A DNA stretch of 63,567 nucleotides, filler included, from Chloroflexota bacterium (GTDB lineage Bacteria > Chloroflexota > Chloroflexia > QHBQ01), in assembly GCA_043754535.1 (NCBI GenBank). It is 6 parts of 6 records of this genome, joined end to end, with 100 filler letters (N's around TTAATTAATTAA, not from the genome) between each part and the next. Parts side by side here need not be neighbours in the genome. Positions count along the whole stretch, not along the records: positions 34,324 to 39,668 come from JAYUUN010000031.1; 5 more parts are not named here. One strand, given 5' to 3'. The notes under the pieces were generated by a model. The model was not told where the DNA came from and ran no database searches. It saw only the letters and a list, made by a program, of their open reading frames with translations. Made by a program: the position numbers and the translations under genes. Shown here one piece after another: positions 34,324-39,668 of the stretch (within the stretch, counting starts at the first letter, position 1; each line of letters starts with the position of its first letter).

Positions 34324-34431
34324 CAACAATCCCGCACCCTAGCCGAGCTACGCGACACCTTGCTGCCCAAGCTGATCTCCGGCGCAGTACGGGTGCGTGA
34401 GGCCGAGCGGCTGGTGGCTGAGGCAGTATAG
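34324..34431 (+). CDS. hsdS: Type I RM specificity subunit, C-terminal end (partial)
   Basis: Translates [24 protein letters not shown]...; directly upstream of hsdR. Confidence 0.88.
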
Positions 34432-34443
34432 AGGAGTGGTGAC

Positions 34444-37400
34444 ATGAGCGCATTTCTGAGCGAGGACGACATCGAGCAGCTAACTATGGGCTACTTCGCC
34501 GGGCTGGGCTACACTGCCATGCACGCCCGTGAACTTGGCCCTGACCGCGACGACGGCAAGGATGAGCGGATCAGCTACGCAGACGTGCTGCTGCTGGGTC
34601 GCCTGCGGGCCGCCATTGCTCGCCTCAACCCCGACCTCCCCGCCGAGGTGCAGGAGGATGCGATACGTAAGCTGACCAACCTTGACAGCCGCCAACTGGT
34701 TGCCAGCAACCGCACCTTCCACCAATGGCTGGTCGAAGGTGTCCCTGCCAAATACACCGTCGGCGGTCAGCAACGCGGGGTGAAGGTGCAACTGCTCGAC
34801 TACGCCAACCCCGCCGCCAACGACCTCCTCGCCGTCAACCAACTAACCGTAATCGAAAGCGGCCACGAGCGCAGGCCCGACATCGTAGTGTTCGTCAACG
34901 GCTTGCCGCTGGCCGTCATCGAACTGAAAAGCCCCAGCGACGAGCGGGCTGACCTACGGGCCGCCTACAACCAGTTGCAGACCTACAAGAAGGAGATACC
35001 TTCGCTCATGGTCTACAACGAACTGCCGATCATCAGTGACGGCCCGCACGCCGCCGCTGGCAGCCTGACCACCAACCGCGAACGCTTCCTACCTTGGCGC
35101 ACGATTGATGGCAGCGAACTGGCCCCGCTTGCCCAGATGGAGATCGCGGTGCTGGTCAAGGGCATCTTCGCCCCCTCCCGCCTACTCGACCTGATCCGCT
35201 ACTTCGTCACCTTCGCCGACGACGGCAGCAAGCTCGACAAGAAGATCGCCGCCTACCACCAGTACCACGCCGTCAACAAGGCAGTGGCCGCCACCGTGCA
35301 GGCCGTGCGTGGCAACCGCAAGATCGGCGTAGTTTGGCACACGCAGGGGTCGGGCAAGAGCCTCTCGATGCTGTACTACGCCGGGAAGCTGCGCCAGCAC
35401 CCGGAACTAGCCAACCCGACTTTGGTTGTGATCACCGACCGCAACGACCTTGACGACCAGCTATTCGACACCTTCGCCGCTGGAGCCGACGTGCTGCGCG
35501 GCGACCCGGTACAGGCTGACAGCCGCGCCGACCTCCGCGCCAAGCTGAACGTAGATGTCGGTGGTGTGATCTTTACCACGATCCAGAAGTTCGCGCCAGA
35601 GAAGGGCGAGAGCCAGCCGCAGCTATCCGCCCGCCAGAACGTGATCGTCATCGCCGACGAAGCTCACCGCAGCCAGTACGACTTCCTCGGCGGCTTCGCC
35701 AGCAACCTGCGCGACGCACTGCCTCATGCCTCGTTTATCGGCTTCAGCGGCACCCCGGTTGAGACCGCTGACCGCAGCACCCGCTCGGTGTTCGGCGACT
35801 ATATAGACACCTACGACATCCAGCAGGCGGTCGAAGATCAGGCGACCGTGCCGATCTACTACGAGGGCCGCTGGGTGCAGCTTGAGCTTGACGAGGCCGA
35901 ACGCCCCCACGTTGATCCCGACTTTGAGGAAGCGACCGAGGGTGAGGAGCAAGGCAGCAAGGAACAGCTAAAACAGAAGTGGTCACGTCTGGAAGCACTG
36001 GTTGGTAGCGATAGACGCATCGAGCAGGTAGCCAGCGACATCGTGACCCACTTTGCCGAGCGCACCGCAGCACTGGTCGGTAAGGGGATGATCGTCTGCA
36101 TGAGCCGCGCCCTCTGCGTCAAGCTGTACGATGAGATCATCAAGCTGCACCCGGAGTGGCACAGCAGCGACGACAATGCGGGCGCGATCAAGGTGGTAAT
36201 CAGCGGCTCGGCAGCCGACGACGCAGAGTTGCAGCCGCACATCCGCAGCAAGCGACAACGCGATGCGGTGGCCCGCCACTTCAAAGACCCTGACGACTCG
36301 CTAAAGCTAGTGATCGTGCGTGATATGTGGCTCACCGGCTTCGACGTGCCACCGCTGCACACGATGTACTTGGACAAGCCGATGCGCGGCCACAACCTGA
36401 TGCAAGCTATTGCCCGCGTCAACCGCGTCTTCCGCGACAAGCCGGGTGGCCTGATCGTGGACTATCTAGGCATCGCCGACTTCCTGCGCCAAGCCCTCAG
36501 CGTTTACAGCCAGCAAGACCGCAACCAAGTTGGCATGGATCAGGAGCAGGCCCGCGTCAAGTTTATCGAGGAGTACGAGATCGTGCAAGCGATGTTCTAC
36601 GGCTTCGACTACCTCGGCCCGTTGCACGGCAGCGTTGAGCAAAAGACGGAGCTACTGCTACAAGCTATGGAACACATCCTCAACCTGACCGATGGCAAGA
36701 ACCGCTTTCTGGATGCGGTCTTGCGCCTCGCCAAAGCCTTCGTCTTGAGCGTGCCGCACCCTGACGTGCTGAAGCTGCGCGACGAGGTGGCGTTCTTCCA
36801 AACCGTCCGCGCCCAGTTCCTCAAGAGTACGCCGGTCGAGGGCCGCGACAGTGGCGACATGGATGCTGCAATCCAACAGATCGTCAGCCGCGCCATTGCC
36901 CCGGCAGGCGTGAGCGACATCTTCACCGCTGCTGGTCTATCCCGCCCCGACGTGTCGGTACTCTCCGAGGAGTTCCTGGCCGACGTAGCCAACCTACCGC
37001 AACGCAACCTCGCGCTGGAAGCGTTGGCAAAGCTGCTAGCTGACCAGATCAAGTCACGCGCACGCACCAACGTAGTTCAGGCCCGCTCGTTCGCCGACCT
37101 CTTGCGTCGCACGGTAGCTGAGTACCAGAACCGCAGCCGCACCGCAGCCGAGGTGATCAGCGAACTAATCAAGCTGGCCCGCGACATACGAGAGGAGCAG
37201 CAGCGCGGCGTGAAGATGCAGATGAGCGAGGCAGAGGTTGCCTTCTACGACGCGCTAACCGACAAAGAGAGTGCCTACGAGGTGTTGAGCGACAGCGACT
37301 TGCAGGATATCGCCCGCGAGTTGGTAGTGGTGGTCAAACGCAACGCCAGCGTAGACTGGACGCTGAAGCAGAACGTGCGGGCGCGGTTGCGGGTCGCGGT

Positions 37401-37506
37401 CAAGCGGGTACTGCGTGAGCGTGGCTACCCACCCGACAAGCAACGTGCTGCCGCCACGCTGATCCTCAAGCAAGCCGAGGCGGTCGGGCGTGGCTGGGCA
37501 GCGTAG
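34444..37506 (+). CDS. hsdR: Type I restriction endonuclease subunit R
   Basis: [51 protein letters not shown]. Confidence 0.97.
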
Positions 37507-37550
37507 GAGCAGGTCAGTGAGTGACTTGTTGCCCCGCTCGCTAACTAACA

Positions 37551-38654
37551 TCAAGCAGCGTTGTACAAAGCCTTCAGTGCGGAAGCAAACTCATCGCCTT
37601 GCAAGTCGCGGTTGATGCTATACAGGTAGGGATCAGCACCTATGTTGCTAGCCTCCTGCCTCAGCTTGCCGGTTAGGTCACGCCGCTGCACAAACTTGTT
37701 ACCCAGCACCAACTGCAAGCGCGACCAATCGTTGTAGAAGTATTCTTGCAGCAACGGGATTACCTTGTTGTACCAAATGCTATGCAACTGGGCCAAGCTG
37801 CCTATTCCAATAAAGTAGCTGTGACCAATCAAGTGGTCAGCATCCACCAACACCTCAACTCGCTCGTTCAGGCTGGTTAGCAGGGCTTGCAGGTCAACCT
37901 CAGCAACCAGCGGGGGCTTGATTGCCGTCGGGTCGGGTGGCAGGGGCAGGAAGTTGAAGCGACGACGCAGGGCTATGTCTAGTAGCGCAATCGAACGGTC
38001 GGCGGTGTTCATCGTACCGACGATCCAGAGGTTGGGCGGCACACCAAACGACTCGCCAGAGTAGGGCAGCGTGGCCCGCAACTCGGTTGATCGCCCGCTG
38101 GCATCCTGCTGACCCAGCCGCTTGTCATCTTCAATCAGGGTGATCAGTTCACCAAAGACTTTGGCAATGTTGGCCCGGTTGATCTCGTCAATGATCAGCA
38201 GATGTTGGTCATCAGGGTGCAAAGCTGCTCTGGCGCAGATACGCTTGAACACGCCGGGCTTAACGTTGTAGCTAAGTTGCCCATCCCGTGCTTCCGGCTT
38301 CAAGCCTTCCACAAAATCTTCGTAGGCGAACGACTGGTGGAAGGTGACAAACGCGCTACAGTTGGCAGGTTGGTTGCTGGCTGCTTCTAGCGCGGCCTCC
38401 TGCTCCTCATCCAGCGGCAGAGTAAGTTCGTTGCCAGCATCGCGGCAGAGTTGTACTAGAGCAGCGGCCTGATCATCACTAAGCTGGCGCAATGTGGCCT
38501 GCACATCGTTGGGCCGCAGCGACAACCGCTCTCGGAGCTGCGACCAAGTTACAGGATGAGCCAACTCACCGCTCAACCTAATGGTTATACCCTTCTCCTC
38601 AGTGCTACTCTCCTCGACCTCACCCACCCCGAAGGGCAGGTGCAACCTGATCAA
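37551..38654 (-). pseudogene. mcrB: N-terminally truncated McrB-like AAA+ GTPase (Walker A missing), 5' end inside CRISPR array 2 trailer
   Basis: FVTFHQSFAYEDFVEG, IIDEINRAN..KVFGEL, GTMNTADRS, ALRRRF, PLLQEYFY; no GxPGxGKT; no mcrC downstream. Confidence 0.82.
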
Positions 38655-39422
38655 GAGCGACCTTACCCGCTCCGCTATGCTGTTTCAATCCCCACCCACC
38701 CCGAAGGGCAGGTGCAACTTGATCACAGCAGCACCCTCCCCACCAACGAACCGTTTCAATCCCCACCCACCCCGAAGGGCAGGTGCAACAGCAGCAATGG
38801 AGGATTATGATTAGTTCTGTACTAGTTTCAATCCCCACCCACCCCGAAGGGCAGGTGCAACGGTGGCAATGGCTGGCGGGTCTGGGATGGTAGGAGGTGG
38901 TTTCAATCCCCACCCACCCCGAAGGGCAGGTGCAACGGGCCGCAGACTTGATGTGCGTGCATCTTCTAGCTGTTTCACAATCCCCACCCACCCCGAAGGG
39001 CAGGTGCAACAGCCAACTGGTGGCCGCTGAAGTTGAGGCCTACCTGTTTCAATCCCCACCCACCCCGAAGGGCAGGTGCAACCTGGTAGCACGCGCTAAG
39101 GAGGTAGGTAAGTAATGTTTCAATCCCCACCCACCCCGAAGGGCAGGTGCAACTCGCCCTGCAAAAGGCTAGCCAGCAGTTTGACGTTGTTTCAATCCCC
39201 ACCCACCCCGAAGGGCAGGTGCAACGAGCAGCAGCTAGACGCGCTGCTCTATAGCATGGTTTCAATCCCCACCCACCCCGAAGGGCAGGTGCAACATGAG
39301 GCTTGCCGAGTTGCGTGCAGCCTGATCGAGGTTTCAATCCCCACCCACCCCGAAGGGCAGGTGCAACCAGGTTGACGCTCTCGTAATGCATCCTCGCACG
39401 CTGTTTCAATCCCCACCCACCC
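38618..39422 (-). CRISPR. CRISPR array 2: 10 full repeats + degenerate trailer repeat + truncated repeat, 11 spacers; repeat GTTGCACCTGCCCTTCGGGGTGGGTGGGGATTGAAAC
   Basis: 37-bp repeats with unique spacers; 2-nt insertion variant at 38972; repeat at 39403 truncated after 20 nt. Confidence 0.97.
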
Positions 39423-39535
39423 GCGAGCGCGAACGTGAGCGCGAACTGATGACCCTTGATGATAAAACCCGCCGCATACCTGCCCCTTCAGGGGTGGGCC
39501 TCTGCGGGCAAGGTAGGCCAAAGGTTGGGGTAGGC

Positions 39536-39564
39536 TTGACATAGGTGTACCAGTATGGTATACT
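39536..39564 (+). promoter_or_regulatory. tnpA promoter (probably leaderless transcript)
   Basis: TTGACA-N17-TATACT, 6 nt before ATG, no RBS. Confidence 0.7.
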
Positions 39565-39570
39565 GTACCC

Positions 39571-39668
39571 ATGCAAGCACGAAAGACAAAGCACGTTACC
39601 TATAAGTTGGGCTATCACTTCGTATGGTGTCCTAAGTACCGCAAGGCGGTGCTGACCGGCGAGGTGCA
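39571..39668 (+). CDS. tnpA: IS200/IS605 Y1 transposase (partial)
   Basis: MQARKTKHVTYKLGYHFVWCPKYRKAVLTGEV. Confidence 0.92.

Follow-up and report, generated by a model that had tools for sequence, protein, structure and literature searches.

The left end of an ISDra2-like IS of the IS200/IS605 family, an element with tnpA and, in its complete copies, tnpB, lies beside a CRISPR array in a MAG of a Chloroflexota bacterium, and the hairpin near this end resembles the core of the array's repeat. The likeness is real and uncommon. We consider it about 75% probable that the locus is an ordinary IS beside a decayed array, that two independent events produced the arrangement, and that the likeness of the two hairpins is coincidental or convergent.

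The window is the whole stretch of DNA that was analysed (63,567 nucleotides, filler included); it consists of six contigs of one MAG with N linkers between them. The assembly has 132 contigs and 3.87 Mb and is 88.9% complete. The locus is the final 266 bases of contig C31 (5345 bases, window 34324-39668), at the 3' end of which the sequence stops at 39668. C31 also carries CRISPR array 2 and the first 208 bases of the IS (Table 1), and a Pfam profile search of the contig found no CRISPR effector among its genes. Elsewhere in the window, ACACCCCGACCA-type units are repeated in long tandem runs at positions 1-1121, with periods of 12, 39, 132 and 207; translated, they would give a Thr/Pro-rich stretch of protein.

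Table 1. Features on contig C31, in window coordinates
Feature	Position	Strand	Details
Type I restriction R subunit gene	34444-37506	+	
AAA_5 ATPase gene	37551-38654	-	
CRISPR array 2	38621-39422	-	11 complete 37-nt repeats, flanked on either side by a partial copy; leader absent
Truncated leader-proximal repeat	39403-39422	-	20 of 37 nt kept; spacing 72 (repeat family D2)
Last 49 nt of an unrelated gene	39412-39460	+	First 11 nt, CCCACCCACCC (39412-39422), common to the repeat
TTGAT target pentanucleotide	39456-39460	+	IS inserted directly 3'
Non-coding left end (LE) of the IS	39461-39570	+	Basis: comparison with L124 and G003
CATA	39475-39478		
Subterminal LE hairpin	39479-39498	+	CCTGCCCC/TTCA/GGGGTGGG; 8-bp stem, tandem T.G and G.T pairs, TTCA loop; putative TnpA binding site
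Sigma-70-like tnpA promoter	39536-39564	+	TTGACA-17-TATACT; 11/12 matches
tnpA (Y1 HUH transposase), first 32 codons	39571-39668	+	ATG at 39571; cut by the contig end

The IS has the features of the IS200/IS605 family, namely a Y1 TnpA, a subterminal imperfect hairpin (at the LE in the window) and insertion 3' of a fixed pentanucleotide, which is TTGAT in the window, in the same-family genome G003 and in five of six metagenome copies, and CTGAT in the sixth. The 32 residues of TnpA in the window score 25.6 bits against PF01797 (Y1_Tnp; cut-off 23), and the HUH and Tyr motifs fall past the contig end in this copy. All 32 are identical to the start of the 134-aa TnpA of L124, a complete sibling copy, and the TnpA of L124 scores 139 bits. 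L124 carries tnpA and tnpB (PF01385, 89 bits; PF07282, 73 bits), and its LE is 98.5% identical to the window over 201-202 nt from 39468 on. In G003, a 77% identical stretch starts at 39455, the base before TTGAT, and the element there (G003:C48) is complete; it has TTGAT, an LE hairpin (CCCCCAAC-TTCA-GGTGGGGG), tnpA (134 aa), tnpB (395 aa) and a right-end hairpin (CTCACCCC-TTCA-GGGGTGGG). The original prediction had supposed that tnpB is missing from the window only through the end of the contig, and the two complete copies, which have the gene, agree with this. In L124 (764-2023, minus strand), the tnpB frame reads without a stop up to and through the right-end hairpin, giving 419 aa versus 395 aa in G003. 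It was also observed that the TTGACA-17-TATACT sequence ends 6 nt before the tnpA ATG and that no ribosome-binding site is visible in 39536-39573. This short distance suggests that the tnpA mRNA is probably leaderless.

The TTGAT-N14-CATA-hairpin layout had been said to resemble the ISDra2 left end; the element is indeed an IS200/IS605 left end of ISDra2 type, in which a subterminal hairpin and then tnpA come after TTGAT. According to PMC2806898, insertion of ISDra2 takes place 3' of TTGAT, and the structure to which TnpA binds is contained in the first 39 nt of the LE. The window element resembles this description in its insertion at TTGAT, which is exact in the empty site described below, and in the length from LE start to hairpin end, which is 38 nt versus about 39 nt. 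Complete copies of the IS also have tnpA and then tnpB on one strand, as ISDra2 does, and ISDra2 TnpB is the best natural solved relative of the G003 TnpB (8H1J, 8BF8; E about 8e-49). Unlike in this respect, TnpA is nearer to a Sulfolobus protein than to ISDra2 TnpA; the best structure match of the G003 TnpA is Sulfolobus 2EC2 (3e-36), and ISDra2 TnpA (2XM3) follows at 1.8e-28. The host is moreover of Chloroflexia type, the hairpin sequence in the window is its own, and the likeness of the N14-CATA layout is one at the level of description. By analogy with ISDra2, a TnpA dimer would bind the LE hairpin on the top strand and cut on the 3' side of TTGAT.

The hairpin is native to the IS. We scanned metagenome contigs for exact matches to the core shared by hairpin and repeat, with two optional bases allowed, and found 77 loci, which comprise eight arrays with the array-2 repeat, six left ends of the same IS and 63 others. 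The six IS copies (L110, L124, L140, L149, L152 and L153) are 97-98.5% identical to the window from 39468 on, and the 21-mer that contains the hairpin is identical in all of them (6/6). In the LE of 11 relatives, an outer stem and an inner hairpin are kept as a nested structure, and 9 of 15 pairs show compensatory changes. When 60 nt of the LE were folded as a single DNA strand, the z against shuffles was -0.05, no different from them, so that the case for LE structure comes from the covariation. In the G003 copy, the core CCCCTTCAGGGGTGGG recurs as the hairpin of the right end, and a repeat of the array-2 type was not found in the G003 genome; right-end hairpins were observed in L124 and G003 and lie outside the part of the IS in the window. 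The identity of the hairpin among IS copies, the covariation in the LE and the right end in a genome without the array-2 repeat together indicate that the hairpin was not copied from the adjoining array.

Searches of the MAG's own assembly by DNA, Y1_Tnp, the whole L124 IS and the TNB domain found no other copy of the IS. Since MAG assemblies typically lack IS that are present in several copies, this absence says little. In searches of genomes of the family and order, a close relative was found only in G003, and other matches were 34-37% identical. The first 14-17 nt of the LE (39461-39477) read GATAAAACCCGCCGCAT in the window, like G003, versus GATCTTTGCCCAGCCGCAT in the six metagenome copies, and the remainder is about 98% identical. 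In the ISDra2-type family, this stretch at the LE start should hold bases that pair with the cleavage site. The sibling copies also differ from the window at 39570.

The flanks of the other copies bear on the proposal that TnpA homes to repeat-like hairpins. The original prediction had itself named insertion at random TTGAT sites as an outcome that would speak against homing, and it is what the metagenome copies show in 6/6. Five of them lie after TTGAT and one after CTGAT, every flank is different (L124, for example, sits between an acetyltransferase gene and a DUF3105 gene), and array motifs were found in none of the six within up to 2.5 kb of flank. Among 86 relative loci (485 kb in total), no flank held a CRISPR-like array (0/86) by a simple array detector, which did find the window array as a positive control. 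Seen from the side of the arrays, the IS hairpin is present in 0/8 of the metagenome arrays with the array-2 repeat. Ktedonobacter sp. SOSP1-85 (L016-L031) has a related IS (TnpA 71-72% identical), which lies after TTGAA at 11/11 loci with unrelated flanks, two loci sharing one flank. TTGAA instead of TTGAT is a one-base target change within the lineage. These sites, together with an empty TTGAT site inside a gene, contradict homing to repeats.

The near-copy that drew attention to the locus was confirmed. When the 21-mer ACCTGCCCCTTCAGGGGTGGG (39478-39498) is aligned to the reverse-complemented repeat core, 19/19 bases match and there are two one-base insertions (score 17); its orientation is inverted, and its distance to the truncated repeat is 55 nt. 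A same-strand alignment of the 21-mer to the array-2 repeat scores 6. The likeness is confined to a 19-nt core of the 37-nt repeat, and the hairpin has neither of the repeat ends, GTTGC and ATTGAAAC. Folded as RNA, the repeat forms a 9-bp stem with a UUCG loop (-17 kcal/mol) and tandem U.G/G.U pairs; the IS hairpin, which was also folded as DNA, forms as RNA an 8-bp stem with a UUCA loop (-14 kcal/mol) and the same tandem pairs. A check against GC-rich hairpins had been named at the outset, and the likeness proved significant in it. A score of 17 was reached by 0 of 20000 shuffles of the hairpin and by 0 of 20000 random 8-bp GC hairpins; under the most lenient null, in which the 5' arm of the hairpins is C-rich and the 3' arm G-rich, 5 of 20000 reached it. 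We also scanned the whole assembly on both strands (258012 windows); outside the array, a score of 14 was reached at 51 places, 15 at eight, 16 at two, and 17 or more at none, the only places in the assembly with a score of 17 being array 2 and, on contig C68, a solo copy of the array-2 repeat. Thirty-five hairpin-repeat pairs were compared in all, and the 34 besides this one scored 4-13, including the IS hairpins of G003 and Ktedonobacter against their own hosts' repeats, which were searched within the GTTGC...ATTGAAAC class only. This suggests that a match to host repeats is not a general property of IS hairpins. Against the array-2 repeat, the hairpin at the right end of this IS reaches no more than 10.

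Three of these observations argue against coincidence: the likeness is rarer than in the nulls, no other place in the genome reaches 17, and the tandem wobble pairs are shared. It must also be said that the likeness was spotted post hoc, within a very large scan. Among the 63 metagenome loci that are neither arrays nor IS ends, which represent 50 distinct contexts, 28 have the exact 19-mer repeat core, and 7 have a T-run after it like that of a terminator. A single unrelated context (L166) has the IS 21-mer unchanged. Convergence is therefore plausible, because the repeat core recurs in dozens of unrelated metagenome contexts.

Array 2 is probably a silent remnant without leader and adaptation genes. 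Its repeat is GTTTCAATCCCCACCCACCCCGAAGGGCAGGTGCAAC on the plus strand and GTTGCACCTGCCCTTCGGGGTGGGTGGGGATTGAAAC on the minus strand, with a spacing of 70-75 nt. The orientation of the array was determined from the metagenome locus L148, in which cas4-cas1 is followed by a leader and then by the first repeat in the GTTGC-to-ATTGAAAC direction. This order shows that array 2 in the window is read on the minus strand and that its leader is expected where the IS sits. The copy next to the IS had been described as the last, truncated repeat; the truncation is correct, and "last" holds only in plus-strand coordinates, as the minus-strand reading makes it the leader-proximal first repeat. Among the 17 nt which it lost are those of the crRNA hairpin's loop and 5' arm. 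In two metagenome runs, X4 and X5, the array-2 repeat continues into a leader nearly identical to that of L148 (30 letters compared). A leader of the L148 type is absent from the window's assembly, where matches to Cas1 and Cas4 are only 31-33% identical and lie beside another array. The spacers of array 2 were compared with those of metagenome arrays having the same repeat, and no spacer is shared.

Several further features of the repeats were observed. The array-2 repeat at 38971-39009 has a CA insertion (GTTTCACAATCCCC), and the solo repeat near the contig end at C68:11701-11735 has the same insertion and a 5-nt deletion and is followed by a more AT-rich, leader-like stretch. At the opposite end of array 2 (38604-38655) there is also a partial repeat, which overlaps the start annotated for the AAA_5 ORF and has other sequence in place of its first 11 nt. 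The genome has at least three repeat families of the GTTGC...ATTGAAAC class, with different cores, on at least eight contigs. Array 1 (C27, 17442-19238) begins 57 nt from a contig end. In metagenome locus L113 (1-1733), two ORFs with weak DruA (Druantia) matches adjoin an array with the array-2 repeat.

The sequence between the array and the IS revealed how the two came to be neighbours. We compared Logan contigs of four runs with 39250-39668; such contigs show presence and not absence. Three other studies supplied runs X3, X4 and X5, each with one contig (777, 2616 and 2784 nt) that matches the window only at 39412-39460 and is unlike it on both sides. In all three, this stretch is an empty site; it ends in TTGAT, is not preceded by an array and is not followed by an IS. 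The gene frame reads ...RERERERELMTLD, and the letters that follow TTGAT in the empty site start with TGA. The stretch CCCACCCACCC corresponds to repeat bases 10-20, so that an 11-nt microhomology fuses the array to the gene. X3-X5 cover 39297-39411 of the window only as repeat pieces, and the 38 nt between the repeat and the IS gave only chance short matches in the MAG's own genome. Contigs that match 39412-39460 and nothing else of the window indicate that the IS entered the gene and not the array, and that a separate rearrangement (less likely a mis-join) brought the array to it. The likeness of hairpin and repeat might itself have led to an inversion or deletion; this reading was rejected, because the junction lies in direct microhomology outside the hairpin.

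If the junction were an assembly or library chimera, the array and the gene with its IS would be neighbours in no cell, and only the sequence likeness would be real. A short microhomology at the junction and the separation of gene and array in the three other studies are compatible with such a mis-join. The junction of array, gene and IS is seen in the MAG contig and in run X1, possibly the same sample; the X1 contig of 242 nt has a depth of 3.06, may share reads with the MAG, and is identical to 39330-39569, bridging repeat, spacer, truncated repeat, TTGAT and hairpin. The two assemblies are thus identical at every base of 39330-39569. De Bruijn assemblers use words far longer than 11 nt, which also speaks against a mis-join at this microhomology. 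Furthermore, the IS in the window has an LE start of its own (GATAAAACCCGCC versus GATCTTTGCCCAGCC in the six other copies), which indicates a distinct insertion and not a mis-join to a common copy. A chimera is, on this evidence, very doubtful.

The rearrangement broke a repeat where its stem meets its loop, only 38 nt away from the IS end, and the account by two independent events must accept this position as chance. An alternative is that the likeness is recognised in the cell: TnpA would bind the repeats in single-stranded DNA and promote breaks or rearrangement there, or a repeat-binding Cas protein would bind IS RNA as a Racr-like mimic, or the likeness brought the IS and the array together. 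Besides the position of the breakpoint, this reading draws on the significance of the likeness in the nulls and the genome scan, on the tandem wobble pairs and near-identical loops of the two hairpins, on the co-occurrence of the IS with arrays of the array-2 repeat in runs from several studies, and on phage-borne repeat mimics, which are known (PMC10651486). The Racr or solitary repeat unit described there is similar in that a mobile element carries a lone mimic of the host repeat stem-loop. It differs in that here only a 19-nt core is mimicked, without repeat ends, and that the hairpin would double as a transposase site. A Racr-like element would be a near full-length, transcribed copy, and what the locus has is 19 of 37 nt placed upstream of the only predicted promoter. 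In addition, the 11-nt direct microhomology explains the junction without the IS hairpin, the match lies on opposite strands at the locus, the other IS copies and the arrays show no association (6/6 and 0/8), the right-end hairpin of the element is less repeat-like, and the hairpins of the G003 and Ktedonobacter IS are unlike the repeats of their hosts. Such recognition in any of its forms is unlikely. The narrower proposal, that the TnpA hairpin of this IS lineage and a co-resident class 1 repeat hairpin are mutually mistaken, with TnpA binding or breaking single-stranded repeats or a Cas protein binding IS RNA, is quite improbable.

A transcript of the LE minus strand might also pair with the repeats as a tracr-like anti-repeat and feed an RNA-guided nuclease, or TnpB might use the crRNAs of the array. 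The geometry of the first proposal is correct, since the array is read on the minus strand with the IS on its upstream side, and a minus-strand transcript would carry the complement of the repeat core. The tracrRNA anti-repeats of type II and some type V systems are similar in that a complement of the repeat lies beside the array on the upstream side. The complementarity extends over 19 nt with two bulges, yet there is no minus-strand promoter-like site in 39423-39668, and the contig carries no effector; each partner is itself a self-folding hairpin, and the array-2 repeat goes with cas4-cas1 in L148, with no type II or V (Cas9 or Cas12) context. The repeat end ATTGAAAC is the tag of class 1 arrays that Cas6 processes and that do without a tracrRNA. 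No Cas12f1-like TNB domain was found elsewhere in the assembly (88.9% complete), and the adjacency of array and IS is a one-off. For TnpB, the wrong end of the element faces the array, as the guide of ISDra2 TnpB consists of the right end plus the flank beyond it, according to PMC8612924, and here it is the LE that adjoins the repeats. Both proposals are extremely improbable.

We therefore return to an ordinary IS beside a decayed array. The IS would have entered the last bases of an ordinary gene, 3' of TTGAT, by the single-strand pathway typical of such elements. A separate rearrangement, mediated by the 11-nt microhomology, would have joined the last 49 nt of this gene to the middle of a repeat of array 2, presumably in the order given here, and would have removed the leader and the adaptation genes of the array. 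The likeness would reflect convergence of two very stable hairpins, each built of a tetraloop between a 5' arm rich in C and a 3' arm rich in G, with no working connection between them. Array 2 resembles orphan arrays made by deletion, having no leader, no nearby cas genes and an end repeat that is cut internally, but differs from them in that the junction can be placed at the 11-nt microhomology and the partner sequence is intact in other samples.

A literature search of titles and the beginnings of abstracts gave no report of an IS end hairpin that resembles a CRISPR repeat. If functional, the likeness would tie DNA recognition by TnpA to CRISPR repeats, which is of note as TnpB and Cas12 already link the two kinds of element; if true, it would be direct cross-talk between an IS200/IS605 end and a class 1 array, of which that search likewise found no case. 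Stable GC-rich tetraloop hairpins recur independently, and a local likeness of this kind calls first for a look at other copies and empty sites. As a by-product, the locus provides a resolved case in which a CRISPR array lost its leader by fusion to an unrelated gene through an 11-nt microhomology.
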